Shown in pieces: positions 40,713-63,895 of a stretch of 64,000 nt of DNA. Numbering within the stretch: the stretch's first letter is position 1; the number at the start of each line of letters is the position of its first letter. A program made the position numbers and the translations under genes. Below the pieces are notes generated by a model. That model was not told where the DNA came from. It worked only from the letters and a program-made list of their open reading frames with translations, and made no database searches. The stretch spans positions 932,001 to 996,000 of the forward strand of contig OZ249436.1 in the NCBI GenBank assembly GCA_965235115.1. The letters run 5' to 3'. Origin of the DNA: Laetmonice hystrix (taxonomy: Eukaryota).

Positions 40713-40772
40713 GTACCTGAATGTGTCTTTCACTAGCAGATGTATCACATAAACCGATTGTTTTTGTTCCAG

Positions 40773-41002
40773 CGTCCGCCGACGTTGGTTTCGCGATTTG
40801 GGACCGGTACACGGGCGACGACGCGACGCCACCTGTCGGCTATGTGGCGCATATCATGGGGGCGTTGGCTGGACTGACGATCGGCCTTTTGGTTCTGAAA
40901 AACTTTGAACAAAAACTCCACGTGCAGATCATGTGGTGGGTGGCCCTAGGTGTGTACACGGTTTGTACAGTGTTCGCCATTCTATGGAACATATTCTATT
41001 AG
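40773..41002 (+). CDS. rho: Rhomboid terminal coding exon 6 (catalytic His)
   Basis: ccag|CG SADVGFAIWDRY...VGYVAHIMGALAGLTIG...WNIFY*; spliced CDS 873 nt = 290 aa plus stop. Confidence 0.97.
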
Positions 41003-43530: not shown

Positions 43531-43677
43531 TTACTTTTGAAGTGCCATGGTAGCCATGTAGTATGCGCGGAGAAGATGTGCAACAACCTGACCGTATTCC
43601 AACATGTCGTTAGCAACCGTATCCAACGAACCGGGCCGGCCTCGTTCTGGTAACCCCAGAATGGACGCTTTTAAGTC
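43531..43677 (-). CDS. GRL101: GRL101-like GPCR, putative terminal exon (kinase-like tail, part 3)
   Basis: ttgcag|DLKASILGLPERGRPGSLDTVANDMLEYGQVVAHLLRAYYMATMALQK*; phase 0 matches the previous exon. Confidence 0.65.
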   Translation of the reverse strand, partial: DLKASILGLPERGRPGSLDTVANDMLEYGQVVAHLLRAYYMATMALQK

Positions 43678-44282
43678 CTGCAACGAGCGGAAGGTGGGTC
43701 TATAGGCACATACGATGGTCTGGATTTTATAGCCGGCGGGGTTAGGGGTGGACCTACTTAAATAGCCTATAACCCCCCCCCCCCAAAAAAAAAAAGAATT
43801 CTCGGTTTCTGGTTCGTGCGCGCGTCACCTCAGATGCCGCGCATCAGTGGTTTTTTTTACTTATCCTCACCTTGGATGGCTGTGTGAATTATGCTGCCAT
43901 CTAGCGGTAAGGCTTGAAACTAACCATGGATATTCCATTAAGATCCATTAACACTGCAACGGAAGTGTGTTGTATTCAAAGCGATGACAGCCAAGGTCAT
44001 GGTCCTTGTTTATGAGTTCATTTTACACGATAATTCTTATGAGGCTTGCCATTTTAGCCAGCTGTCACCCCAAAAAAAATCTTTAAAAAAAAAAACCAAA
44101 AAAAAAAACGCGTCACCGCACCACTTTTGAAATGTTCTTGAGACCAGAAACCGGGAAAAATTTGTTTGGCCTAAGCTAGCGCGGGAGATCTGGTTAATGT
44201 ATATGATTGTAGGGTACAAAGAATCCCTATCGAAGAAACCCTTTTGGAGTCCCTTCTGAAATGCGGGTCTACCTCAGCTTAC

Positions 44283-44482
44283 CTTGGTATCCAGTTCAAT
44301 CGTTTCTATGGTAACCCGACCAAGTCGGAGTCCGTCGGCGTGGATGTCCCGGATGACCTGCGCCACCTGGTGAGAGATTGTGTAGAGGACTGTGACGTCA
44401 CGCACGGCGTCTGCTCGCACACGGAGGTATTTGTCGAGCGTCTCGCGACCCTTACTGTCCGCCTCGTTCGAACATATCTTCA
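44283..44482 (-). CDS. GRL101: GRL101-like GPCR, C-terminal exon (kinase-like tail, part 2)
   Basis: ctcag|TG KICSNEADSKGRETLDKYL...HQVAQVIRDIHADGLRLGRVTIETIELDTK|gtaagc; 200 nt, phase 1 to 0. Confidence 0.7.
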
Positions 44483-44496
44483 CTGAGTAATAAATA

Positions 44497-46423
44497 TTTA
44501 GAGAAGATCACCAGTATGATATCATGTGTTGGGGTGTGTTTAGAGAAGATCACCAGTATGATATCATGTGATGGGGTGTGTTTAGAGAAGATCACCAGTA
44601 TATCATGTGTTGGGGTGTGTTTAGAGAAGATCACCAGTATGATATCATGTGTTGGGGTGTGTTTAGAGAAGATCACCAGTATGATATCATGTGATGGGGT
44701 GTGTTTAGAGAAGATCACCAGTATATCATGTGTTGGGGTGTGTTTAGAGAAGATCACCAGTATGATATCATGTGATGGTGTGTGTTTAGAGAAGATCACC
44801 AGTATGATATCATGTGTTGGGGTGTGTTTAGAGAAGATCACCACTATGATATCATGTGTTGGGGTGTGTTTAGAGAAGATCACCACTATGATATCATGTG
44901 TTGGGGTGTGTTTAGAGAAGATCACCAGTATGATATCATGTGTTGGGGTGTGTTTAGAGAAGATCACCAGTATGATATGTGTTGGGGTGTGTTTAGAGAA
45001 GATCACCAGTATGATATCATGTGTTGGGGTGTGTTTAGAGAAGATCACCAGTATGATATGTGTTGGGGTGTGTTTAGAGAAGATCACCAGTATGATATCA
45101 TGTGTTGGGGTGTGTTTAGAGAAGATCACCAGTATGATATCATGTGTTGGGGTGTGTTTAGAGAAGATCACCAGTATGATATGTGTTGGGGTGTGTTTAG
45201 AGAAGATCACCAGTATGATATCATGTGTTAGGGTGTGTTTAGAGAAGATCACCAGTATGATATGTGTTGGGGTGTGTTTAGAGAAGATCACCAGTATGAT
45301 ATCATGTGTTAGGGTGTGTTTAGAGAAGATCACCAGTATGATATCATGTGTTGGGGTGTGTTTAGAGAAGATCACCAGTATGATATCATGTGTTGGGGTG
45401 TGTTTAGAGAAGATCACCAGTATGATATCATGTGTTGGGGTGTGTTTAGAGAAGATCACCAGTATGATATCATGTGTTGGGGTGTGTTTAGAGAAGATCA
45501 CCAGTATGATATCATGTGTTGGGGTGTGTTTAGAGAAGATCATCAGTATGATATCATGTGTTGGGGTGTGTTTAGAGAAGATCACCAGTATGATATCATG
45601 TGTTGGGGTGTGTTTAGAGAAGATCACCAGTATGATATCATGTGATGGGGTGTGTTTAGAGAAGATCACCAGTATGATATCATGTGTTGGGGTGTGTTTA
45701 GAGAAGATCACCAGTATGATATCATGTGTTGGGGTGTGTTTAGAGAAGATCACCAGTATGATATCATGTGTTGGGGTGTGTTTAGAGAAGATCACCAGTA
45801 TGATTGTGTGTGTTGGGGTGTGTTTAGAGAAGATCACCAGTATGATATCATGTGTTGGGGTGTGTTTAGAGAAGATCACCAGTATGATATCATGTGTTGG
45901 GGTGTATTTATAAGAAGATCACCAGTATGATATCATGTGTTGGGGTGTGTTTAGAGAAGATCACCAGTATGATATCATGTGTTGGGGTGTGTTTAGAGAA
46001 GATCACCAGTATGATATCATGTGTTGGGGTGTGTTTAGAGAAGATCACCAGTATGATATCATGTGATGGGGTGTGTTTAGAGAAGACCACCAGTATGATA
46101 TCATGTGTTAGGGTGTGTTTAGAGAAGATCACCAGTATGATATCATGTGTTGGGGTGTGTTTAGAGAAGATCACCAGTATGATATCATGTGTTGGGGTGT
46201 GTTTAGAGAAGATCACCAGTATGATATCATGTGTTGGGGTGTGTTTAGAGAAGATCACCAGTATGATATCATGTGTTGGGGTGTGTTTAGAGAAGATCAC
46301 CAGTATGATATCATGTGTTGGGGTGTGTTTAGAGAAGATCACCAGTATGATATCATGTGTTGGGGGGTGTTTAGAGAAGATCACCAGTATGATTGTGTGT
46401 GTTGGGGTGTATTTAGAGAAGAT
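44497..46423. repeat. 42/39-bp minisatellite, about 46 copies, abutting a GPCR acceptor
   Basis: TTTAGAGAAGATCACCAGTATGATATCATGTGTTGGGGTGTG repeated. Confidence 0.97.
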
Positions 46424-46498
46424 TAAGAGGAAGAGCCTTGGACTAGAAAAAGAATTCATTCAGAATTCATTTGAAACTTTGCTTATCCAACTCAATAG

Positions 46499-48695
46499 TG
46501 GATTACAAATGAAATACTTGAGCAAATTCATGATAAGGATTACTTTTTAAGGAAGGCTAAAGAGACAGGCAACATGGATGACTGGAACATAGCTCGTAGG
46601 CTTAAAAACCGAGTAATAAATCTTGTTAGGTATTCCAAAGCAGACTATATTAAGAGTAATCTAGAAACATACAAAGACGATGCCAAAAAGTACTGGAGAA
46701 CCATCAAAAGTGTTCTGCCTGATGGAAAAAATAATGCTAACAGTGTAATCAAACTTAAGGACGAGACTGGAGAAGATGTTGAAAACTGTAGAACTGCCGC
46801 ATTTATAAACCAGTTCTTTGTTTCTATAGGACCTAAGTTAGCAAAACCCCTCAATGCTAAATGGACCTATTATGGACCCTCTTTAGACCAAACCTTTGAA
46901 CTCAAACCAATAACAAATGAATACACCAAAAAGTTAGTAAAGGCTATTAACACGAACAAGTCATCTGCTATTACAAACTTATCATCCCAAATATTAAAAG
47001 ATGCCTTTAGTGCTCTAGTCCCCGAATTAACTCATCTGCTCAACCTATCTTTAACCACCAATGTTATACCTCAAGCTTGGAAAGTTGCTAAGGTAGTGCC
47101 TCTGCCGAAAGACGGAAACTCTGAAGATGTAAATAATTGGAGACCCATATCTCTTTTGCCGCTACCTGGCAAACTCTTGGAAAAATCGGTACATACTCAA
47201 CTTATGGAACACCTTACTTCCAAAAATATTCTGGATAAAAATCAAGGAGGTTTCAGGAAAGGTTTCTCCACCACTTCAACAATAGCAAAACTTACTGATG
47301 ATATTTACTCCGCAATGAATAATTCCGAACTAACACTGGCAGTATTTATAGATTTTAAAAAAGCATTTGACACACTAGACCACGATATCCTGCTTATGAA
47401 AATGAAACATCTGGGTTTAAAGGACAATGCAGTTCAATGGTTCAAGAATTACCTACATGGCAGGACACAATTTACAGTAGCCAATGATATAACATCAAAC
47501 TCACTACCTATCACATGTGGAGTACCCCAAGGTTCCATACTGGGACCCCTACTTTTCCTGTGCTACATAAACGATCTGTCATCAGCTATTAAATCATCTA
47601 AACACAAGTTGTACGCTGACGACACTGCTGTTCATCAGTCAGGACCTGACATTAATACTATAAAATATAAATTGCAACATGACCTTAATTCTATTTCCAA
47701 ATGGTGTGATGAGAACCGTCTCACAATCAATGCAAAGAAAACAAAGGTCATGATTTTTGGCACACATCAGAAGCTTAAGAGGACTCAAGACCCTGAACTG
47801 AAAATTGGCGATTCAAAGCTAGATGTAGTACAGGAGTACAAGTACCTAGGTGTAACGTTGGATAAAACACTATCTTTTGTAAAGCATACCAAAAATGTTA
47901 TAAAAACAGCTAGCCAAAAACTCTATCTTTTGAACAAATTACGTCCTTACCTCACTGACTCTGCCTGTCTCCAAGTTTACAAATCCATGGTCCTTCCGTA
48001 TATAGAATATGGTGATGTCTTATATAGTTGTACGAACGTTAAACTACTGGACAAATTGCAACGTATTCAGAACAGAGGACTCAAATTGTGTTTTAGACTA
48101 CCTCAAACAACTGGTACCCTGGACATCCACCGAAAGGCCAAACTAAATTTCCTAACAGACAGGAGAGACTCTCATCTATTAAATGTAATGTTCCATCGAA
48201 GCAATGACCCAGACTATGTTGACAATAGAGAAATCCATACCAGGTTACATGACTATGTAACTCTGGTAGTACAACGCCCTAAGAACGCTTCATTCACTAA
48301 AAGTGTTTGTTACAGAGGAGGGAACATTTGGAATAACCTAGATCCCGTTGATAAACAGATGACAACTATAGAACGCTTTAAGTTTAGACAAAAGTCGGTC
48401 TTAAAGAGTAAACTGGCATAAGCCCTTTATTTTCCCGTAAAATAGATAATCGCCACATGCAGAATCACCTACTCGTAGTTAAGATATCATCTCATTACCA
48501 TCTCATTTTCTCTCATTAACCCACAAGTAGGTACCCATATATTACTTCTTAGCGTCATCTTGTATAAAAATATAATGTGTAAAGTTGATAAATTGTAACC
48601 TTTCTTGGACTGGGCGGTTTTGAAAACCGGTATCCCACATGTACCGAAAATCTCTCAGTATAAATAAATGAATGAAAAAAAAAAGAAAAAAAAAA
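46499..48695 (+). mobile_element. 5'-truncated non-LTR retrotransposon (CR1/L2-group LINE), antisense within a GPCR intron
   Basis: Open frame from WITNEILEQ (46499) to the stop at 48421; 3' UTR ending AATAAATGAATG plus an A-rich tail (about 48663-48695). Confidence 0.9.
46574..48421 (+). CDS. LINE ORF2 reverse transcriptase domain (endonuclease missing)
   Basis: Motifs NWRPISLL, NQGGFRKG, DFKKAFD, GVPQGSILGPLLF, YADD, YKYLGV. Confidence 0.95.
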   Translation: MDDWNIARRLKNRVINLVRYSKADYIKSNLETYKDDAKKYWRTIKSVLPDGKNNANSVIKLKDETGEDVENCRTAAFINQFFVSIGPKLAKPLNAKWTYYGPSLDQTFELKPITNEYTKKLVKAINTNKSSAITNLSSQILKDAFSALVPELTHLLNLSLTTNVIPQAWKVAKVVPLPKDGNSEDVNNWRPISLLPLPGKLLEKSVHTQLMEHLTSKNILDKNQGGFRKGFSTTSTIAKLTDDIYSAMNNSELTLAVFIDFKKAFDTLDHDILLMKMKHLGLKDNAVQWFKNYLHGRTQFTVANDITSNSLPITCGVPQGSILGPLLFLCYINDLSSAIKSSKHKLYADDTAVHQSGPDINTIKYKLQHDLNSISKWCDENRLTINAKKTKVMIFGTHQKLKRTQDPELKIGDSKLDVVQEYKYLGVTLDKTLSFVKHTKNVIKTASQKLYLLNKLRPYLTDSACLQVYKSMVLPYIEYGDVLYSCTNVKLLDKLQRIQNRGLKLCFRLPQTTGTLDIHRKAKLNFLTDRRDSHLLNVMFHRSNDPDYVDNREIHTRLHDYVTLVVQRPKNASFTKSVCYRGGNIWNNLDPVDKQMTTIERFKFRQKSVLKSKLA

Positions 48696-48704
48696 GTACG
48701 ATAC

Positions 48705-48774
48705 CTTGTACTCGCTTTCCTTGCCAGCCGGTGCAGCCAACGATACTGGGTTCTATCTGGGATGCTTTCTGCCA
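48705..48774 (-). CDS. GRL101: GRL101-like GPCR, small exon (tail part 1)
   Basis: atatag|WQKASQIEPSIVGCTGWQGKRVQ G|gtatcg; 70 nt, phase 0 to 1, bridging the phase mismatch between 49807 and 44482. Confidence 0.55.
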
Positions 48775-48999
48775 CTATATCAAAGACAATGGTGAGATAT
48801 CATTTTATTTGACTGAGCTTGTAATCCTAGGAAGGTTGTTCCGTTTGTGTCTACCTAGGATGACCTTTACGACGAGTGGGCCGGTTGTAAGTAGTATATG
48901 ACAAGAGTCCAAAGAGGCAGGCGATCACCCAACATTGAATCGTAACGTTTACACAAAGTCGCTCTTCAAGCCTCATTTTTGTTTAAAATCGCCGTTTCT

Positions 49000-49827
49000 G
49001 AGACTTACCGGGAACTGTAATGTTAGGAGACTCACCGGGAACTGTAATGTTAGGAGACTCACCGGAAACTGTAATGTTAGGAGACTCACCGGAAACTGTA
49101 ATGTTAGGAGACTCACCGAGAACTGTAATGTTAGGAGACTCATCGGGAACTCTAATGTTAGGAGACTCACCGGAAACTGTAATGTTAGGAGACTCACCGG
49201 AAACTGTAATGTTAGGAGACTCACCGGAAACTGTAATGTTAGGAGACTCACCGGGAACTCTAATGTTAGGAGACTCATCGGGAACTCTAATGTTAGGAGA
49301 CTCACCGGGAACTCTAATGTTAGGAGACTTACCGGGAACTGTAATGTTAGGAGACTCACCGGGAACTGTAATGTTAGGAGACTCACCGGGAACTGTAATG
49401 TTAGGAGACTCACTCGGAACTGTAATGTTAGGAGACTCACCGGGAACTGTAATGTTAGGAGACTTACCGATAACTGTAATGTTATGAGACTCACCGATAA
49501 CTGTAATGTTAGGAGACTCACCGGGAACTGTAATGTTAGGAGACTCACCGGGAACTGTAATGTTAGGAGACTTACCGGGAACTGTAATGTTAGGAGACTC
49601 ACCGGGAACTGCAATGTTAGGAGACTCACCGGGAACTGTAATGTTAGGAGACTCACTCACCGGGAACTGTAATGTTAGGAGACTCACTCACCGGGAACTG
49701 TAATGTTAGGAGACTCACCGGGAACTGTAATGTTAGGAGAACTGTAATGTTAGGAGACTCACCGAGAACTCTAATGTTAGGAGAACTGTAATGTTAGGAG
49801 ACTCACCGGGAACTGTAATGTTAGGAG
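49000..49827 (-). repeat. 27-bp minisatellite, about 30 copies, made from the TM7-exon donor
   Basis: Minus-strand unit CTCCTAACATTACAGTTCCCG|GTGAGT. Confidence 0.95.
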
Positions 49828-49931
49828 GGTATACAGGAAAGGGTTGAGCGCCGAGTTCACAGGAAGGATGAAGACTACCGTCCAGGCATACACCACACCA
49901 GGCACCCGCACGTCAAGTAAAGCCATCAGAC
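49807..49931 (-). CDS. GRL101: GRL101-like GPCR, TM7 exon
   Basis: tttcag|GT LMALLDVRVPGVVYAWTVVFILPVNSALNPFLYTLLTLQFP|gtgagt; NSxxNPxxY motif; missed by the ORF track. Confidence 0.92.
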
Positions 49932-52371: not shown

Positions 52372-53913
52372 CCATCGTGTTGATCGGGACCCAGCAACAG
52401 AAGTCGACAAACACCAGAAACGTCATTTTGCGTGCTCTCTTCATCTCGCGACCTTTTTGCGCCTGCGATCCCACATTTTTGATTGACTTGTACATCAGGG
52501 TATATGCTCCCCACATGAGTAGGAATATGGTAAAATTGAGCGCGTGGAATATGATGAAAGAATACTCCCATCCAGGGGAGATGTCGGGTGTAATATAGAG
52601 CGCCACACAGACCCCTGACCGCGCGTAAAACTGACCTTTGAAGTACTCGCTTGGCATCATGGGAATGACAAAGAGCATGACGACAGTTGCCCACACTGTC
52701 GCCATGACGACACGCGCTGAGTTCAGCGTTAGATGGTGGGTGGAGAATGGAAAGAGGAGTTTGTGCATGCGATCGCAGGTAACGACGAATAAAGTCAGGA
52801 CTGAGGTTTCACTGGAGACTGCCGAGAGAAATCCTAAAACTTGGCACGTCCAGCTGAGCCGCCATGACGTAGCGTTTTCGATGTACTGACCGCGGTAACG
52901 TGCATCCACCACTCCGATCACTAACATGTAGAACCCCATGAGGAGATCGGCCAGCGCTAGGTTCTTGATGAGATAATTAGGGACGACCAAGTCAAACACG
53001 TGTGTACTTCTCCACGTCAGTACGAACACGTTACCAATGATAGAAATACAGGCTAGGATCCAGATAAAAGCCCTCAGGACCTGGTGACTCATCAGATCCT
53101 CACAGGAAGAAACCTCGTCTTGTTTGGGGAGACATGCAGACGGCGGTAGTGACACAAAACAACAAAACATGTAGTCATCACTCTCAAGATACCGCAGGCC
53201 GCGTAAGTTCTCCAAGTCTCTCTTCAAGAAGTCGATGATCACATTCCGACTCATGTTCAAGTGTTCTAGGTTAGAAAGACCATGAAAAGCGCCATGTTCT
53301 AGGAGTGAGATGTCATTATTTGATATATCCAGGTGAGTTAGACTTTGGAGACGTTTAAAGGTTCCTGACTTTATTACTGTCAGTTGCATGTCACTGAAGT
53401 CCAGTCGGGGCAAACTGACCAGAGACTGGAGAGAGTCGTGAGAGATGAACATTAATGGGTTTCCATCGAGATGTAGCTCATTGAGTTGTCCTAACCCGCT
53501 AAAAACGTCATCCGTTAGAACCCGGATGTCATTCCAGGAGATATCGAGACGCTTCAGGTTGTACTGGGACGCGAAGGGACAGCATGACAGATTATAAATA
53601 CCATTCCAAGACAGACCCAGTTCAATGAGGAAATAAAACGATCGAAAAGTATCATCTGTGATTGTACTCACAGCATTACCAGACAAGTTTAGAGCTCGGG
53701 CAGCTACTGAGACTGACGAAGGTACCCGAACCAATCCGACCTGTGTACACGTGTACGTAAGGCTGTGACATTGGCAACCTTGAGGGCACTCAAGGTCACA
53801 GTAAAGTTCATCGTCACCATGATGACAGTGACGTATGCCATCACAGCGTTGACGGGCAGTTACACAGTTCATGGATCCGCGACACCGTATCATTCCAGGA
53901 CAGGCGTAGGAAT
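52372..53913 (-). CDS. GRL101: GRL101-like GPCR, large exon: last LDLa, LRRNT, LRRs, hinge and TM1-TM6
   Basis: ttag|AT...CDGIRHCHHGDDELYC, LxxLDLSxN-type repeats, SSCEDLM hinge, NLALADLLMG, CDR, CWVP G|gtgagt; 1542 nt. Confidence 0.96.
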
Positions 53914-54080
53914 CTAAGGTGGAGAATGAACTATTATTACTATTATTTAGCACACAAAACTGAGGCAGTTGTCTGAGGGCAGTTTGTCTGGGGAAATTGA
54001 CCTATGAAGGAGAGAGCTGATAATTTTTGATAAGTAAATTGATCTGTTTTGTCTGATTCCGCTTAGATGTGCTAGCTTAC

Positions 54081-54197
54081 AGCAGTCACGTTCGTCCTCG
54101 CCGTTCGGACAGTCAGCGGCGCCGTCACAGACCTTGTAGGCGGCCACGCAGTAACTGGACGGGCACTTGGCCTGTCCCGCGGGACACTGGAAGCCTT
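54081..54197 (-). CDS. GRL101: GRL101-like GPCR, LDLa exon
   Basis: ttgtag|AA GFQCPAGQAKCPSSYCVAAYKVCDGAADCPNGEDERDC T|gtaagc; 117 nt, phase 1-1. Confidence 0.93.
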
Positions 54198-57100
54198 CTA
54201 CAACATCGGACACAAAATTATACCGTGATTTACACTGGAAGTCTTCTACAACATCAGACACAAAATTATACGGTGATGTCATGAACCCTGGAAGTTTTCT
54301 ACAACATCAGACACAGAATTATACGGTGATGGACACTGGAAGTCTTCTACAACATCAGACACAGAATTATACGGTGATGTCATGAACCCTGGAAGTTTTC
54401 TACAACATCAGACACAGAATTATACGGTGATGGACACTGGAAGTCTTCTACAACATCAGACACAAAATTATACGGTGATGGACACTGGAAGTCTTCTACA
54501 ACATCAGACACAGAATTATACCGTGATTTACACTGGAAGTCTTCTACAACATCAGACACAAAGTTATACGGTGATGGACACTGGAAGTCTGCTACAACAT
54601 CAGACACAAAGTTATACGGTGATGGACACTGGAAGTCTGCTACAACATCAGACACAAAATTATACCGTGATTTACACTGGAAGTCTTCTACAACATCGGA
54701 CACAAAATTATACGGTGATGGACACTGGAAGTCTTCTGCAACATCAGACACAAAATTATACGGTGATGGACACTGGAAGTCTTCTACAACATCAGACACA
54801 AAATTATACGGTGATGGACACTGGAAGTCTTCTACAACATGAGACACAAAATTATACGGTGATGGACACTGGAAGTCTTCTACAACATCAGACACAAAAT
54901 TATACGGTGATGGACACTGGAAGTCTTCTACAACATCAGACACAAAATTATACGGTGATGGACACTGGAAGTCTTCTACAACATCAGACACAAAATTATA
55001 CGGTGATGGACACTGGAAGTCTTCTACAACATCAGACACAAAATTATACGGTGATGGACACTGGAAGTCTGCTACAACATCAGACACAGAATTATACGGT
55101 CATGGACACTGGAAGTCTTCTACAACATCAGACACAAAATTATACGGTGATGGACACTGGAAGTCTTCTACAACATCAGACACAAAATTATACGGTGATG
55201 TCATGGACACTGGAAGTCTTCTACAACATCAGACACAGAATTATACGGTGATGGACACTGGAAGTCTTCTACAACATCAGACACAGAATTATACGGTGAT
55301 GGACACTGGAAGTCTTCTACAACATCAGACACAGAATTATACGGTGATGGACACTGGAAGTCTGCTACAACATCAGACACAGAATTATACGGTGATGGAC
55401 ACTGGAAGTCTGCTACAACATCAGACACAGAATTATACGGTGATGTCATGGACACTGGAAGTCTTCTACAACATCAGACACAGAATTATACGGTGATGGA
55501 CACTGGAAGTCTGCTACAACATCAGACACAGAATTATACGGTGATGGACACTGGAAGTCTGCTACAACATCAGACACAGAATTATACGGTGGTGGACACT
55601 GGAAGTCTGCTACAACATCAGACACAGAATTATACGGTGATGGACACTGGAAGTCTGCTACAACATCAGACACAAAGTTATACGGTGATGGACACTGGAA
55701 GTCTTCTACAACATCATACACAAAATTATACGATGATGGACACTGGAAGTCTTCTACAACATCAGACACAGAATTATACGGTGATGGACACTGGAAGTCT
55801 GCTACAACATCAGACACAAAATTATACGGTGATGGACACTGGAAGTCTTCTACAACATCAGACACAAAATTATACGGTGATGGACACTGGAAGTCTTCTA
55901 CAACATCAGACACAAAATTATACCGTGATTTACACTGGAAGTCTTCTACAACATCAGACACAGAATTATACGGTGATGGACACTGGAAGTCTTCTACAAC
56001 ATCAGACACAAAATTATACGGTGATGGACACTGGAAGTCTTCTACAACATCAGACACAAAATTATACGGTGATGGACACTGGAAGTCTTCTACAACATCA
56101 GACACAAAATTATACGGTGATGGACACTGGAAGTCTTCTACAACATCAGACACAAAATTATACCGTGATTTACACTGGAAGTCTTCTACAACATCAGACA
56201 CAGAATTATACGGTGATGGACACTGGAAGTCTTCTACAACATCAGACACAAAATTATACGGTGATGGACACTGGAAGTCTTCTACAACATCAGACACAGA
56301 ATTATACGGTGATGGACACTGGAAGTCTGCTACAACATCAGACACAGAATTATACGGTGATGGACACTGGAAGTCTTCTACAACATCGGACACAGAATTA
56401 TACCGTGATTTACACTGGAAGTCTTCTACAACATCAGACACAAAATTATACGGTGATGGACACTGGAAGTCTTCTACAACATGAGACACAAATTTTATAC
56501 GGTGATGGACACTGGAAGTCTTCTACAACATCAGACACAAATTTTATACGGTGATGGACACTGGAAGTCTTCTACAACATCAGACACAAAATTATACGGT
56601 GATGTCATGAACCCTGGAAGTTTTCTACAACATCAGACACAAAGTTATACGGTGATGGACACTGGAATTCTTCTACAACATCAGACACAGAATTATACCG
56701 TGATTTACACTGGAAGTCTTCTACAACATCAGACACAAAATTATACGGTGATGTCATGAACCCTGGAAGTTTTCTACAACATCAGACACAAAATTATACG
56801 GTGATGGACACTGGAAGTCTTCTACAACATCAGACACAAAATTATACGGTGATGGACACTGGAAGTCTTCTACAACATCAGACACAGAATTATACCGTGA
56901 TTTACACTGGAAGTCTTCTACAACATCAGACACAGAATTATACGGTGATGGACACTGGAAGTCTTCTACAACATCAGACACAGAATTATACCGTGATTTA
57001 CACTGGAAGTCTTCTACAACATCAGACACAAAATTATACGGTGATGGACACTGGAAGTCTTCTACAACATCAGACACAGAATTATACGGTGATGGACACT

Positions 57101-60100
57101 GGAAGTCTTCTACAACATCAGACACAGAATTATACGGTGATGGACACTGGACGTCTTCTACAACATCAGACACAGAATTATACGGTGATGGACACTGGAA
57201 GTCTTCTACAACATCAGACACAAAATTATACGGTGATGGACACTGGAAGTCTTCTACAACATCAGACACAGAATTATACGGTGATGGACACTGGAAGTCT
57301 TCTACAACATCAGACACAGAATTATACGGTGATGGACACTGGAAGTCTTCTACAACATCAGACACAAAATTATACGGTGATGGACACTGGAAGTCTTCTA
57401 CAACATCAGACACAGAATTATACGGTGATGGACACTGGAAGTCTTCTACAACATCAGACACAGAATTATACGGTGATGGACACTGGAAGTCTGCTACAAC
57501 ATCAGACACAGAATTATACGGTGATGGACACTGGAAGTCTGCTACAACATCAGACACAGAATTATACGGTGATGTCATGGACACTGGAAGTCTTCTACAA
57601 CATCAGACACAGAATTATACGGTGATGGACACTGGAAGTCTGCTACAACATCAGACACAGAATTATACGGTGATGGACACTGGAAGTCTGCTACAACATC
57701 AGACACAGAATTATACGGTGGTGGACACTGGAAGTCTGCTACAACATCAGACACAGAATTATACGGTGATGGACACTGGAAGTCTGCTACAACATCAGAC
57801 ACAAAGTTATACGGTGATGGACACTGGAAGTCTTCTACAACATCATACACAAAATTATACGATGATGGACACTGGAAGTCTTCTACAACATCAGACACAG
57901 AATTATACGGTGATGGACACTGGAAGTCTGCTACAACATCAGACACAAAATTATACGGTGATGGACACTGGAAGTCTTCTACAACATCAGACACAAAATT
58001 ATACGGTGATGGACACTGGAAGTCTTCTACAACATCAGACACAAAATTATACCGTGATTTACACTGGAAGTCTTCTACAACATCAGACACAGAATTATAC
58101 GGTGATGGACACTGGAAGTCTTCTACAACATCAGACACAAAATTATACGGTGATGGACACTGGAAGTCTTCTACAACATCAGACACAAAATTATACGGTG
58201 ATGGACACTGGAAGTCTTCTACAACATCAGACACAAAATTATACGGTGATGGACACTGGAAGTCTTCTACAACATCAGACACAAAATTATACCGTGATTT
58301 ACACTGGAAGTCTTCTACAACATCAGACACAGAATTATACGGTGATGGACACTGGAAGTCTTCTACAACATCAGACACAAAATTATACGGTGATGGACAC
58401 TGGAAGTCTTCTACAACATCAGACACAGAATTATACGGTGATGGACACTGGAAGTCTGCTACAACATCAGACACAGAATTATACGGTGATGGACACTGGA
58501 AGTCTTCTACAACATCGGACACAGAATTATACCGTGATTTACACTGGAAGTCTTCTACAACATCAGACACAAAATTATACGGTGATGGACACTGGAAGTC
58601 TTCTACAACATGAGACACAAATTTTATACGGTGATGGACACTGGAAGTCTTCTACAACATCAGACACAAATTTTATACGGTGATGGACACTGGAAGTCTT
58701 CTACAACATCAGACACAAAATTATACGGTGATGTCATGAACCCTGGAAGTTTTCTACAACATCAGACACAAAGTTATACGGTGATGGACACTGGAATTCT
58801 TCTACAACATCAGACACAGAATTATACCGTGATTTACACTGGAAGTCTTCTACAACATCAGACACAAAATTATACGGTGATGTCATGAACCCTGGAAGTT
58901 TTCTACAACATCAGACACAAAATTATACGGTGATGGACACTGGAAGTCTTCTACAACATCAGACACAAAATTATACGGTGATGGACACTGGAAGTCTTCT
59001 ACAACATCAGACACAGAATTATACCGTGATTTACACTGGAAGTCTTCTACAACATCAGACACAGAATTATACGGTGATGGACACTGGAAGTCTTCTACAA
59101 CATCAGACACAGAATTATACCGTGATTTACACTGGAAGTCTTCTACAACATCAGACACAAAATTATACGGTGATGGACACTGGAAGTCTTCTACAACATC
59201 AGACACAGAATTATACGGTGATGGACACTGGAAGTCTTCTACAACATCAGACACAGAATTATACGGTGATGGACACTGGACGTCTTCTACAACATCAGAC
59301 ACAGAATTATACGGTGATGGACACTGGAAGTCTTCTACAACATCAGACACAAAATTATACGGTGATGGACACTGGAAGTCTTCTACAACATCAGACACAG
59401 AATTATACGGTGATGGACACTGGAAGTCTTCTACAACATCAGACACAGAATTATACGGTGATGGACACTGGAAGTCTTCTACAACATCAGACACAAAATT
59501 ATACGGTGATGGACACTGGAAGTCTTCTACAACATCAGACACAGAATTATACGGTGATGGACACTGGAAGTCTTCTACAACATCAGACACAGAATTATAC
59601 GGTGATGGACACTGGAAGTCTTCTACAACATCAGACACAAAATTATACGGTGATGGACACTGGAAGTCTTCTACAACATCAGACACAAAATTATACGGTG
59701 ATGGACACTGGAAGTCTTCTACAACATCAGACACAAAATTATACGGTGATGGACACTGGAAGTCTTCTACAACATGAGACACAAATTTTATACGGTGATG
59801 GACACTGGAAGTCTTCTACAACATCAGACACAAATTTTATACGGTGATGGACACTGGAAGTCTTCTACAACATCAGACACAAAATTATACGGTGATGTCA
59901 TGAACCCTGGAAGTTTTCTACAACATCAGACACAAAGTTATACGGTGATGGACACTGGAATTCTTCTACAACATCAGACACAGAATTATACCGTGATTTA
60001 CACTGGAAGTCTTCTACAACATCAGACACAAAATTATACGGTGATGTCATGAACCCTGGAAGTTTTCTACAACATCAGACACAAAGTTATACGGTGATGG

Positions 60101-62591
60101 ACACTGGAAGTCTTCTACAACATCAGACACAGAATTATACCGTGATTTACACTGGAAGTCTTCTACAACATCAGACACAGAATTATACCGTGATTTACAC
60201 TGGAAGTCTTCTACAACATCAGACACAGAATTATACCGTGATTTACACTGGAAGTCTTCTACAACATCAGACACAGAATTATACGGTGATGGACACTGGA
60301 AGTCTTCTACAACATCAGACACAGAATTATACGGTGATGGACACTGGAAGTCTTCTACAACATCAGACACAAAATTATACGGTGATGGACACTGGAAGTC
60401 TTCTACAACATCAGACACAAAATTATACGGTGATGGACACTGGAAGTCTTCTACAACATCAGACACAAAATTATACCGTGATTTACACTGGAAGTCTTCT
60501 ACAACATCAGACACAGAATTATACGGTGATGGACACTGGAAGTCTTCTACAACATCAGACACAAAATTATACGGTGATGGACACTGGAAGTCTTCTACAA
60601 CATCAGACACAGAATTATACGGTGATGGACACTGGAAGTCTGCTACAACATCAGACACAGAATTATACGGTGATGGACACTGGAAGTCTTCTACAACATC
60701 GGACACAGAATTATACCGTGATTTACACTGGAAGTCTTCTACAACATCAGACACAAAATTATACGGTGATGGACACTGGAAGTCTTCTACAACATGAGAC
60801 ACAAATTTTATACGGTGATGGACACTGGAAGTCTTCTACAACATCAGACACAAATTTTATACGGTGATGGACACTGGAAGTCTTCTACAACATCAGACAC
60901 AAAATTATACGGTGATGTCATGAACCCTGGAAGTTTTCTACAACATCAGACACAAAGTTATACGGTGATGGACACTGGAATTCTTCTACAACATCAGACA
61001 CAGAATTATACCGTGATTTACACTGGAAGTCTTCTACAACATCAGACACAAAATTATACGGTGATGTCATGAACCCTGGAAGTTTTCTACAACATCAGAC
61101 ACAAAATTATACGGTGATGGACACTGGAAGTCTTCTACAACATCAGACACAAAATTATACGGTGATGGACACTGGAAGTCTTCTACAACATCAGACACAG
61201 AATTATACCGTGATTTACACTGGAAGTCTTCTACAACATCAGACACAGAATTATACGGTGATGGACACTGGAAGTCTTCTACAACATCAGACACAGAATT
61301 ATACCGTGATTTACACTGGAAGTCTTCTACAACATCAGACACAAAATTATACGGTGATGGACACTGGAAGTCTTCTACAACATCAGACACAGAATTATAC
61401 GGTGATGGACACTGGAAGTCTTCTACAACATCAGACACAGAATTATACGGTGATGGACACTGGACGTCTTCTACAACATCAGACACAGAATTATACGGTG
61501 ATGGACACTGGAAGTCTTCTACAACATCAGACACAAAATTATACGGTGATGGACACTGGAAGTCTTCTACAACATCAGACACAGAATTATACGGTGATGG
61601 ACACTGGAAGTCTTCTACAACATCAGACACAGAATTATACGGTGATGGACACTGGAAGTCTTCTACAACATCAGACACAAAATTATACGGTGATGGACAC
61701 TGGAAGTCTTCTACAACATCAGACACAGAATTATACGGTGATGGACACTGGAAGTCTTCTACAACATCAGACACAGAATTATACGGTGATGGACACTGGA
61801 AGTCTTCTACAACATCAGACACAAAATTATACGGTGATGGACACTGGAAGTCTTCTACAACATCAGACACAAAATTATACGGTGATGGACACTGGAAGTC
61901 TTCTACAACATCAGACACAAAATTATACGGTGATGGACACTGGAAGTCTTCTACAACATGAGACACAAATTTTATACGGTGATGGACACTGGAAGTCTTC
62001 TACAACATCAGACACAAATTTTATACGGTGATGGACACTGGAAGTCTTCTACAACATCAGACACAAAATTATACGGTGATGTCATGAACCCTGGAAGTTT
62101 TCTACAACATCAGACACAAAGTTATACGGTGATGGACACTGGAATTCTTCTACAACATCAGACACAGAATTATACCGTGATTTACACTGGAAGTCTTCTA
62201 CAACATCAGACACAAAATTATACGGTGATGTCATGAACCCTGGAAGTTTTCTACAACATCAGACACAAAGTTATACGGTGATGGACACTGGAAGTCTTCT
62301 ACAACATCAGACACAGAATTATACCGTGATTTACACTGGAAGTCTTCTACAACATCAGACACAGAATTATACCGTGATTTACACTGGAAGTCTTCTACAA
62401 CATCAGACACAGAATTATACCGTGATTTACACTGGAAGTCTTCTACAACATCAGACACAGAATTATACGGTGATGGACACTGGAAGTCTTCTACAACATC
62501 AGACACAGAATTATACGGTGATGGACACTGGAAGTCTTCTACAACATCGGACACAAAATTATACGGTGACACTGGAGGTCTTCTACAACAT
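54183..62591 (-). repeat. 48-bp minisatellite, about 175 copies, made from the LDLa-exon acceptor; fills almost the whole intron
   Basis: Minus-strand unit CATCACCGTATAATTYTGTGTCTGATGTTGTAG|AAGACTTCCAGTGTC. Confidence 0.97.
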
Positions 62592-62608: not shown

Positions 62609-62893
62609 CGCAGTTCTCGAGGTGACCAGCGTCCCGGCATCCCAGGATGACTCCATAACGGTCACTGTCATATAAACACCTCCAGTCCTCCGGGTAACGC
62701 TGTGTGTTCTTACATCGAACCGTCTCCGACCCTGGAGAAGGTGGTCGCCTGGAGGACGCCAGAGACACACACATACCTTTATCTTCGTCCTCCTTGTGAG
62801 TTCCGGGACAGTCGACTATGACGTCACAGCGTCGGTCCAATGATATACACGTGCCATCATAACACTGGAAGGTGTGGTCCATGGAACACGTAT
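62609..62893 (-). CDS. GRL101: GRL101-like GPCR, LDLa exon
   Basis: ctcag|AT TCSMDHTFQCYDGTCISLDRRCDVIVDCPG...CLYDSDRYGVILGCRDAGHLENC G|gtcagt; 285 nt, phase 1-1. Confidence 0.92.
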
Positions 62894-63074
62894 CTGAGAG
62901 TAGGAATAAAGACGTTACAATTATGTAGCTTTTATTCTCTAACTGACACACTGACTGCAAAGTGAGTTGACCAGGCAATCCGATAGTGTCACATTATACA
63001 CCTTAAGATTTTCTTACTTTTCTCGCTGAAAGAATAAAAATCGGAATGAAAGAAATCAGCTTGAGGTTAGGTTA

Positions 63075-63628
63075 TACTGAAACAACCCAACAGTTGAACG
63101 GAGTGAGACGTCAAATAATATACCGAAACAACCCAACAGTTGAACGGAGTGAGACGTCAAATAATATACCGAAACAACCCAACAGTTGAACGGAGTGAGA
63201 CATCAAATAATATACCGAAACAACCCAACAGTTGAACGGAGTGAGACGTCAAATAATATACCCAAACAACCCAACAGTTGAACGGAGTGAGACGTCAAAT
63301 AATATACCCAAACAACCCAACAGTTGAACGGAGTGAGACGTCAAATAATATACCCAAACAACCCAACAGTTGAACGGAGTAAGACGTCAAATAATATACC
63401 GAAACAACCCAACAGTTGAACGGAGTGGGACGTCAAATAATATACCGAAACAACCCAACAGTTGAACGGAGTGAGACGTCAAATAATATACCGAAACAAC
63501 CCAACAGTTGAACGGAGTGAGACGTCAAATAATATACCGAAACAACCCAACAGTTGAACGGAGTGAGACGTCAAATAATATACCGAAACAACCCAACAGT
63601 TGAACGGAGTGAGACGTCAAATAATATA
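63075..63628. repeat. 46-bp minisatellite, about 12 copies
   Basis: GAAACAACCCAACAGTTGAACGGAGTGAGACGTCAAATAATATACC repeated. Confidence 0.95.
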
Positions 63629-63778: not shown

Positions 63779-63895
63779 CACAGGCCACTTCGTCCGAGGA
63801 GTCTGCGCAGTGAGGCCAAAGGTCACAGCGGTCCTCGCCCCGTATACATACAGCATCCGCACACCGGAACTCGGCGTCTGTACAGTTCGGGAACG
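63779..63895 (-). CDS. GRL101: GRL101-like GPCR, LDLa exon; the gene continues beyond the window
   Basis: ttgcag|CG FPNCTDAEFRCADAVCIRGEDRCDLWPHCADSSDEVAC G|gtgagt; 117 nt, phase 1-1; missed by the ORF track. Confidence 0.92.

Follow-up and report, generated by a model that had tools for sequence, protein, structure and literature searches.

The receptor gene and its predicted exons

The window analysed here comprises 64,000 nucleotides of Laetmonice hystrix contig OZ249436.1 (assembly GCA_965235115.1, positions 932,001 to 996,000) and carries on its minus strand a gene that, judged from its sequence, is a GRL101-like or type C2 LGR, with multiple LDLa repeats, leucine-rich repeats (LRRs) and a rhodopsin-type seven-transmembrane domain (7TM). 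A first-pass annotation had placed the gene in the same class, as the 7tm_1, LRR_8 and LDLa matches given below bear out. The following features were read in the window:

43531..43677, minus strand: last coding exon, with β8, the DFG-equivalent region, a short form of the activation segment, αF (retaining the equivalents of Asp220 and Gly225) and the stop codon TAA
44283..44482, minus strand: exon with the hinge, αD, αE (His158-equivalent), a degenerate catalytic loop (LGR replaces HRD) and β7
48705..48774, minus strand: linker exon of 70 nt, a prediction, leading from phase 0 to phase 1; the least certain part
49807..49931, minus strand: TM7 exon, with NSALNPFLY and the start of helix 8
52372..53913, minus strand: large exon, with LDLa, LRR N-cap, LRRs, hinge and TM1-TM6, from Pfam scores and the acceptor as read
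54080..54190 (approximate), minus strand: LDLa exon, cysteine pattern recognised by eye, the 5′ end merging with a 48-bp array
62612..62893 (approximate), minus strand: two LDLa-like units recognised by eye; the Pfam scan covered part of this region, without an LDLa match
63779..63895 (approximate), minus strand: LDLa exon (Ldl_recept_a, E = 1.2e-7)

By Pfam, the 7TM is a rhodopsin-type domain of the LGR kind (7tm_1, E = 4e-18), preceded by leucine-rich repeats in six stretches (LRR_8, E = 7e-41) and by an LDLa domain in the large exon (Ldl_recept_a, E = 0.0013). About five LDLa units lie inside the window, two of them scored by Pfam (one below the cut-off) and three recognised by eye, and the receptor gene likely continues past the end of the 64-kb window. 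A Pfam Big_2 match (E = 0.035) was discarded as chance. The CWxP and NPxxY motifs of the 7TM are intact, with DRM at the DRY position; its identity to the 7TM of Biomphalaria GRL101 is 47%, and its named matches were GRL101(-like) or uncharacterised LRR-7TM proteins. In a 7TM tree of 21 rows the divergent window copy formed a long branch (end branch 1.73) at a polytomy shared with Biomphalaria GRL101, Glandiceps and chelicerates, and the tree failed to separate gain of the tail from its loss.

The first-pass annotation had proposed three exons after TM7 encoding about 140 residues, and the predicted gene model agrees with it: four exons are joined by GT-AG introns of phases 1, 0, 1, 0, all phase-compatible, and the reading frame after NPFLY stays open for the 146 residues of the predicted spliced tail, which contains all of the peptides quoted earlier. 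The inclusion of exon 48774-48705, the weakest part of the model, rests on phase, exon-candidate scoring and linker length. This exon is phase-compatible, without homology support, and is the sole one outside a retroelement among the 14 top-scoring of 236 candidate exon definitions (46424-48999). With it, the linker (measured from NPxxY to the conserved His) is 79 residues long, and without it 54, as compared with 79-160 in 30 relatives. Skipping of the linker exon by direct joining of 49807 to 44482 had been said to give an immediate stop; this holds for AG 44484, but a second AG at 44479, which had been overlooked, makes an in-frame skip possible. Read-through of the TM7 donor leads to a stop 17 residues past NPFLY.

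Three sequencing runs, in the form of contigs, covered the 605-nt intron at approximately exon depth, with no joint at the intron ends, and so behave as DNA. Within exon 44482-44283 two variants only were found (in one DNA run), both synonymous in the predicted frame, which is weak evidence. The donor of this exon appears to be a conserved intron position, because seven of eight homologue records end or diverge with Val (GT-N) at the column of the window's donor after β7; these records were hand-picked and are mostly fragments, and the position was deduced from protein ends. A metagenome scan for homologue DNA that would show intron positions, run with one homologue, returned 215 pattern matches, none of which was confirmed.

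Kinase ancestry of the cytoplasmic tail

We built a profile (HMM) from nine homologue tails that were picked by 7TM similarity alone, with the window sequence kept out. Among the 2403 six-frame ORFs of the window, the one containing exon 44482-44283 ranked first (E = 1.7e-5) and the one containing exon 43677-43531 second (E = 0.36, not significant alone), and the spliced tail of the window scored 29.2 bits as opposed to at most 7.0 in 1000 shuffles. With an HMM of 30 tails, from which the isoform P0003 and the aberrant model P0023 were excluded, the two exons reached E = 4e-7 and 4e-4 and the spliced tail 43.4 versus 7.9 bits, figures that are partly circular since 21 of the 30 tails came from a profile holding the window exons. 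For exon 44480-44283 alone, a word-index search yielded 81 candidates, none at E ≤ 10, and Pkinase clusters came up at 0.93 among its ESM Atlas features.

Protein kinases made up all 60 of the matches listed when the tail profile was compared with PDB sequences, the pseudokinase VRK3 being the best (E = 1.4e-10), and alignment of the 30 tails to 14 kinase domains with hhalign gave 97.5% (E = 6e-12). That match is confined to kinase columns 83-197, and within it about 19 columns of the activation segment are missing. The Glandiceps tail was recognised by Pfam as PK_Tyr_Ser-Thr (E = 2e-5), as were, at E ≤ 0.05, six of 32 alignment members. Single sequences from the window were less informative: its tail alone scored 5.2 bits against the kinase HMM (1 of 1000 shuffles higher, not significant), neither tail exon matched PDB sequences, and the Pfam scan of the window gave no kinase match. 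A PDB search with alignment A2 returned mostly GPCRs, because this profile included TM5-7, and a word-index search with A2 gave six matches, namely three tail-bearing receptors, two kinases and a Mnemiopsis receptor that matched through its 7TM and is without the module.

Structure prediction was performed on the full module of an abalone relative and, for the window, on a single exon. The AlphaFold model of the abalone tail (pLDDT 80) has a helix-helix-hairpin-helix arrangement, and the exon 44480-44283 model reached pLDDT 81; for the abalone model (VIA) and for the window exon alike, kinase folds were 50 of the 50 matches listed. The best match of the abalone model had Z 10.2 (rmsd 2.6, 96 aligned) and the window exon was colinear with LRRK2 1951-2004 at Z 6.4 (rmsd 1.2, 54 residues), values of 6 to 10 being near the range that the structure-comparison tool calls common. 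RNase L, PAN3 and JAK2 JH2 were among the structural matches listed for the abalone model. With Foldseek, neither model reached a match at E ≤ 0.001.

As judged from the profiles and predicted structures, the tail is of protein-kinase-fold ancestry. It corresponds to about 100 residues that lead from the hinge/αD through αE and a catalytic loop that is dead to β7-β8 and αF, and neither profile nor HMM comparison found an N-lobe, HRD, APE or αG-αI in it; the N-lobe is considered unmatched because no homologue domain match to the kinase HMM begins before position 71 of 265. By the same evidence the module is a kinase C-lobe core and not a complete two-lobed pseudokinase domain. The earlier view of a much shortened domain without catalytic residues agrees with these comparisons, while "GPCR-pseudokinase fusion" was right as to the kinase-derived tail and overstated as to its extent.

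Residues and distribution of the module in relatives

Residues in the 30 relatives were counted by HMM column. The window has L-G-R at the HRD positions, and among the relatives the Asp position is D in one and the Arg position R in none; at the catalytic-loop Asn position the window has T, and 12 of 30 relatives have Asn. At the DFG-Asp position 19 of 30 carry D or E, yet there is no DFG there. The His158-equivalent and the αD Leu are kept in all 30, and the Asp220-equivalent is D in 24; the window keeps the His, Asp, Gly and αD Leu of the module. The accessible text of PMC1821047 places H158 and D220 in a conserved hydrogen-bond network of kinases. In αF, 19 of 30 relatives have E or D at the position of the Trp and 18 of 30 have K or R at that of Tyr229, whereas αF of the window is less charged (L, A, H at those positions). 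The window tail is without the PPxGY motif common among relatives, and the protein stops 24 residues past the αF Asp. These columns uphold most of the earlier reading of the tail: ETLDKYL is αD by both profile and structure comparison, αE is followed by a catalytic loop that has lost HRD and N, the profile alignment puts the LKASILGL region at the β8/DFG position, and αF is where it had been assigned.

The first-pass annotation had regarded such a tail as unusual for a class-A LGR and had proposed a survey of homologue C-termini. The module was found on 10 of 16 7TM relatives; the receptors go under names like "uncharacterized" or "GRL101-like" because most copies of the module score below the Pfam cut-off. 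The bearers are chelicerates (arachnids), a millipede, molluscs, hemichordates (acorn worms) and a crinoid, and all tails of 7TM-bearing matches are at most 335 residues long. From these sequences the module appears as a trait of a bilaterian-wide receptor subfamily, not a peculiarity of the Laetmonice hystrix genome. Identity was compared in eight of nine pairs, one having been dropped. Core, linker and 7TM were 68, 19 and 69% identical between scorpion and spider, 49, 3 and 65% between scorpion and millipede, and 38, 28 and 65% between two hemichordates. In arthropods the core is thus nearly as conserved as the 7TM, from which we consider a selected docking module likely.

A proposed docking module and its relation to known systems

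We think it reasonably probable that the gene encodes a GRL101-like receptor whose catalytically dead C-lobe core folds by itself and serves as a tethered docking module and not as an enzyme. Ligand binding to the LDLa-LRR-7TM receptor would lead to G-protein signalling, by extension from an orphan family, and predicted splicing would append a linker of about 45 residues and the module, which profile and predicted structure identify as the hinge-αD-αE-loop-β7-β8-αF part of a protein-kinase fold. Such a module would be expected to hold no ATP in the usual cleft and to transfer no phosphate, and the earlier suggestion of a scaffold seems right in light of the lost catalytic parts. It may be a stabilised mini-domain kept by selection, as the His158/Asp220 pair is retained and relatives mostly have charged residues at the αF positions that αG-αI usually bury. 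By analogy to MAP kinases, in which the docking site includes the β7-β8 turn and the αD-αE loop (PMC10691213, available text), it could recruit a cytosolic partner, most plausibly via its αD/αE/β7-β8 surface, and that partner would provide a second output or a regulatory input beside the G protein. More tentatively, and with somewhat less than even confidence, these receptors may form an undescribed bilaterian-wide class-A GPCR subfamily that uses half a kinase as an autonomous docking domain and thereby a G-protein-independent LGR output, perhaps derived by trimming from an LGR-pseudokinase fusion more than 500 million years old and lost in some snail GRL101s.

The module might instead act in cis, packing on the cytoplasmic face and gating access of G protein, GRK or arrestin, or serving folding or surface export, with no separate partner. 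Its constant placement 79-160 residues past NPxxY on a variable linker and the way its conservation tracks the 7TM in arthropods would suit such a role; we nevertheless consider it unlikely, as the linker is poorly conserved and varies two-fold in length, and the module tail is missing from six of the 16 close 7TM relatives, among them Biomphalaria GRL101. This absence also speaks against the docking module, since GRL101-like receptors can evidently work without one.

Dimerisation or oligomerisation of the receptor, in which αF or the terminal helix would stand in for αG-αI contacts, is improbable. The missing C-lobe helices would leave the αF face free and the abalone model has a long terminal helix, but the αF face is mostly charged in relatives, which fits solvent exposure, and the terminal helix of the window is short, ending at the 24th residue past the αF Asp. 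A homodimer prediction for the abalone module, made without an alignment, scored 0.02 and counts neither way.

We also see little likelihood that the module, real in the family, is decaying or mostly spliced out in Laetmonice hystrix. The long branch, the loss of PPxGY, the short read-through and skip forms, and the large introns, which are full of repeats and include a retroelement lying about 9 nt from the donor of the linker exon, point in that direction, whereas the open frames, canonical splice sites, retained His, Asp, Gly and αD Leu, the confidence of the fold predicted for the window exon (pLDDT 81) and the synonymy of both variants point away from it. Least probable is an N-lobe remnant, private to this lineage, that might still touch nucleotide: GWQGKRVQVKI, formerly read as β2-β3, does form across an exon junction a WxGxxVxVK pattern that we take to resemble TKL-group β2-β3, but the pattern was picked after the fact, its VQVK (the β3 Lys candidate) occurs in the window only and in none of the 30 homologue tails, no homologue has an N-lobe domain match, there is no glycine loop, αC or β4, and its site about 14 residues before αD is that expected of β5 and the hinge.

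The module places a kinase-derived element on rhodopsin-class LGRs of arthropods, molluscs, hemichordates and an echinoderm, and suggests that selection can act on a minimal kinase C-lobe as a domain in its own right. It offers a 100-residue target for how orphan GRL101-like receptors signal, including those of ticks, mites and farmed molluscs, and truncated gene models used in deorphanising experiments may omit part of the receptor. GRL101 receptors are orphans for which an IGF receptor role has been proposed (PMC8286064, PMC7357564). The published GRL101/LGR accounts, in their accessible portions, treat only the ectodomain and 7TM, and PMC4079206 left the C-terminal tail of LGRs out of account as "poorly conserved". 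In the mainly open-access literature no report of a kinase-like tail of GRL101 or LGR5 came to light, and the word "kinase" is absent from the available text of supplement file 1 of PMC8286064.

The gene resembles GRL101 and the other type C2 LGRs (Lymnaea GRL101, arthropod LGR5) in its LDLa repeats, LRRs and rhodopsin-type 7TM; Biomphalaria GRL101 differs in having a 71-residue tail without a match to the module. With the pseudokinases VRK3, JAK JH2, RNase L and PAN3 the module shares a kinase fold with catalytic residues lost, but these keep both lobes, which the module does not; VRK3 stands out by sequence only, the structural search giving it no special place. The GPCR-TK, GPCR-TKL/K and GPCR-PIPK fusions likewise have a 7TM followed, within a single chain, by a cytoplasmic domain of kinase fold. 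According to the accessible text of PMC12716839, they occur in choanoflagellates, sponges, oomycetes and amoebozoans, with GPCR-TKs found among metazoans in sponges only, and no GPCR-kinase fusion has so far been functionally characterised. Those fusions join recognisable kinase domains to other 7TM families, whereas here, where profile and residue comparison found no full TK or TKL domain behind the 7TM of the window, a bilaterian LGR carries what appears to be a dead C-lobe core only.

Gene model and genomic surroundings

The window region is minisatellite-rich animal DNA, and the three sequence runs that cover its GRL101-like receptor gene behave as DNA. The predicted gene consists of the following exons.

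Upstream of the large exon, as far as the window end, minus strand: further LDLa exons
53913-52372, minus strand: large exon with LDLa, LRRs and TM1-6 (Pfam LRR_8, E 7e-41; 7tm_1, E 4e-18)
49931-49807, minus strand: TM7 exon
48774-48705, minus strand: linker exon, 70 nt
44482-44283, minus strand: tail exon, 66 aa
43677-43531, minus strand: last tail exon

Joined in a script, these exons have GT-AG introns of compatible phase throughout and a single open frame, with a predicted 146-aa tail after NPFLY; every peptide quoted in the first-pass annotation lies in this frame. Read-through at the TM7 donor gives a stop after 17 aa and, as that annotation had stated, splicing 49807 straight to 44482 stops immediately, so that omission of the 70-nt exon through use of the first AG ends the frame at once. 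A second AG at 44479, 5 nt into the 44482-44283 exon, would permit a frame-preserving skip. Because this skip would shorten the distance from NPxxY to the conserved core His from 79 to 54 aa, compared with 79-160 aa in a set of 30 homologue tails, the 70-nt exon is likely to be real; it is the weakest element of the predicted model.

Repeats and a neighbouring gene surround these exons.

63073-63628: intron-filling minisatellite array, 46-bp unit
54182-62591: intron-filling minisatellite array, 48-bp unit, beginning at an exon edge
49000-49827: 27-bp tandem array, repeating the TM7 exon end plus its splice donor ~30 times
46430-48695, plus strand: non-LTR retroelement inside the 4.2-kb intron, with a 640-aa frame free of stops (Pfam RVT_1, E 3e-39)
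44497-46423: intron-filling minisatellite array, 42-bp unit, beginning at an exon edge
43800-44160: dispersed element of high copy number, its ends resembling inverted repeats, in the last intron of the receptor gene
40721-41002, plus strand: final exon of a gene of the rhomboid family (Pfam, E 0.0035), convergent (tail-to-tail) with the receptor gene

The retroelement has AATAAA and a poly-A that stops ~9 nt from the donor of the linker exon; it seems recent and truncated at its 5' end. The 8.4-kb array at 54182-62591 repeats an LDLa exon start, and the element at 43800-44160 is MITE-like (summed contig depth up to ~90,000 vs ~50). The first extra copy in the 27-bp array is broken and yields a stop, so a downstream donor, if used, would give a tail-less receptor.

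Kinase derivation of the tail

By sequence, the window tail alone had no significant likeness to kinases (against a kinase HMM, 1 of 1000 shuffles scored higher), and its single exons matched no PDB sequence. The family tail profile matched only protein kinases among the 60 PDB sequences listed (best VRK3, E 1.4e-10), and profile-profile alignment of the tails with 14 kinase domains gave 97.5% across kinase columns 83-197 (αD to αF), with ~19 activation-segment columns missing. Structure comparison, as the first-pass annotation had advised for its proposed GPCR-pseudokinase fusion, returned kinase folds throughout the matches listed, weakly in Foldseek. The AlphaFold model of the abalone tail, the closest to that of the window (pLDDT 80; helices 60-66, 72-91 and 130-166, strands 104-108 and 114-119), had kinase folds as 50 of the 50 VIA matches listed (best Z 10.2, rmsd 2.6, 96 residues), and all its listed Foldseek matches were kinases (best E 0.036). 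The window's own 66-aa exon (pLDDT 81) likewise gave 50/50 kinases among the matches listed, being colinear with LRRK2 1951-2004 (rmsd 1.2, 54 residues), and one weak kinase row in Foldseek. The VIA Z values of both models are modest taken singly; the basis of the assignment is the family profile and the uniformity of the matches, and we are highly confident both in the existence of the module and in its kinase origin. A weak alignment of the profile to the end of the thyrotropin-receptor tail, where αD-αE would lie, falls in part on a His tag and is probably due to chance.

Distribution and conservation

Of 2403 six-frame window ORFs, the two relevant ones took first place (E 1.7e-5) and second place (E 0.36) when scored with an HMM of nine homologue tails built without the window; the same HMM gave the spliced tail 29.2 bits vs <=7.0 for 1000 shuffles. 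A search with the window 7TM alone found 16 long LRR-7TM proteins, and the survey of homologue C-termini called for at first pass placed a related tail on 10 of them, three of the ten being isoforms or sister-species copies from Dermacentor. When 1.84 billion representatives were searched with a profile, 1182 matched at E<=0.001; the best 150 comprised 146 new proteins, 22 with an LGR-type 7TM, and the remainder, not all classified, include short same-tail fragments and kinases. Named carriers are arthropods (scorpion, spiders, ticks, mites, sea spider, millipede), molluscs (abalones, scallop, clam) and deuterostomes (three hemichordates, a crinoid). Among the tails compared, the module was absent from Biomphalaria GRL101, two Bulinus paralogues, one short Glandiceps model, two unnamed proteins and a Mnemiopsis receptor. 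In the 7TM tree the window is a long branch at a fork shared with Biomphalaria GRL101, Glandiceps and chelicerates, and a single gain with loss of the tail is not separated from alternatives. In seven of eight homologue records picked by hand, the sequence stops or diverges with a Val at the exact column of the window's post-β7 donor, which suggests, from protein records, a shared intron there.

Tick, scorpion and millipede members (P0002, P0004, P0006, P0174) reach 2500-2700 aa. Those of tick and scorpion carry apextrin-C, F5/8 and CUB domains ahead of the LDLa repeats, with a C-type lectin in ticks; the tail module thus stays constant across ectodomains that differ greatly.

Identities for the core (hinge/αD to αF), the linker between NPxxY and core, and the 7TM were 68/19/69% for scorpion-spider, 49/3/65% for scorpion-millipede and 38/28/65% for hemichordates: core conservation in arthropods almost equals that of the 7TM and is far above the linker, and is weaker in hemichordates. 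Counted by HMM column in the 30 relatives, the His158 equivalent and the αD Leu are invariant (30/30 each), and the Asp220 equivalent and the αF Gly occur in 24/30 each. At the three HRD positions the relatives have L or H, then G (26/30), then a variable residue (D in 1/30); the window has L-G-R, which, together with the αD-αF extent only, bears out the earlier claim of lost catalytic residues and a shortened domain. Glycine loop, αC, APE and αG-αI were not found in the module. In whole kinases certain αF positions pack against helices that the module lacks; in the relatives these positions are mostly charged (Trp position E/D in 19/30, Tyr229 K/R in 18/30). In the kinase core, His158 and Asp220 take part in a conserved network of hydrogen bonds (PMC1821047).

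Proposed role and relation to known systems

By analogy with its family, a ligand would bind the LDLa/LRR ectodomain and the intact-looking 7TM would signal through G proteins. The module, tethered to the receptor, is unable to form an ATP cleft and is therefore likely to offer a binding surface. Among the elements it retains are two that give the docking site of MAP kinases its shape, the αD-αE loop and the turn between β7 and β8 (PMC10691213), and for this reason we favor, with some reserve, a partner-docking module. Action by cis-gating or trafficking is doubtful, though the best placed of the alternatives to docking, and dimerisation is improbable. Equally improbable is that the module is decaying or spliced out in Laetmonice hystrix; the window keeps the His158 equivalent, αD Leu, Asp220 equivalent and αF Gly (four of four). 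An N-lobe remnant touching nucleotide is very improbable; the β2-β3 motif (GWQGKRVQVKI) proposed at first pass is found in the window and in 0/30 relatives, at the place of β5 and the hinge, and for these reasons we do not count it among the features of the family.

Our literature search found no description of a kinase-like GRL101/LGR tail, and look-ups for the truncated form and for similar sequence gave no match. None is mentioned in the available portions of PMC8286064 and its supplements, PMC7357564, PMC11863921, PMC3971589 and PMC12297450 (in the last, 'kinase' occurs 0 times); LGR tails have been set aside as poorly conserved (PMC4079206, in the part available). GPCR-kinase fusions are recorded in oomycetes, amoebozoans, choanoflagellates and sponges, and the accessible text of PMC12716839 places no GPCR-TKs among Metazoa beyond sponges. 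The kinase-derived LGR tail is real and conserved. In architecture the window gene matches the GRL101-like type C2 LGRs, whereas its tail belongs neither with active kinases nor with complete pseudokinases, and the receptor stands apart from the GPCR-TK/TKLs.
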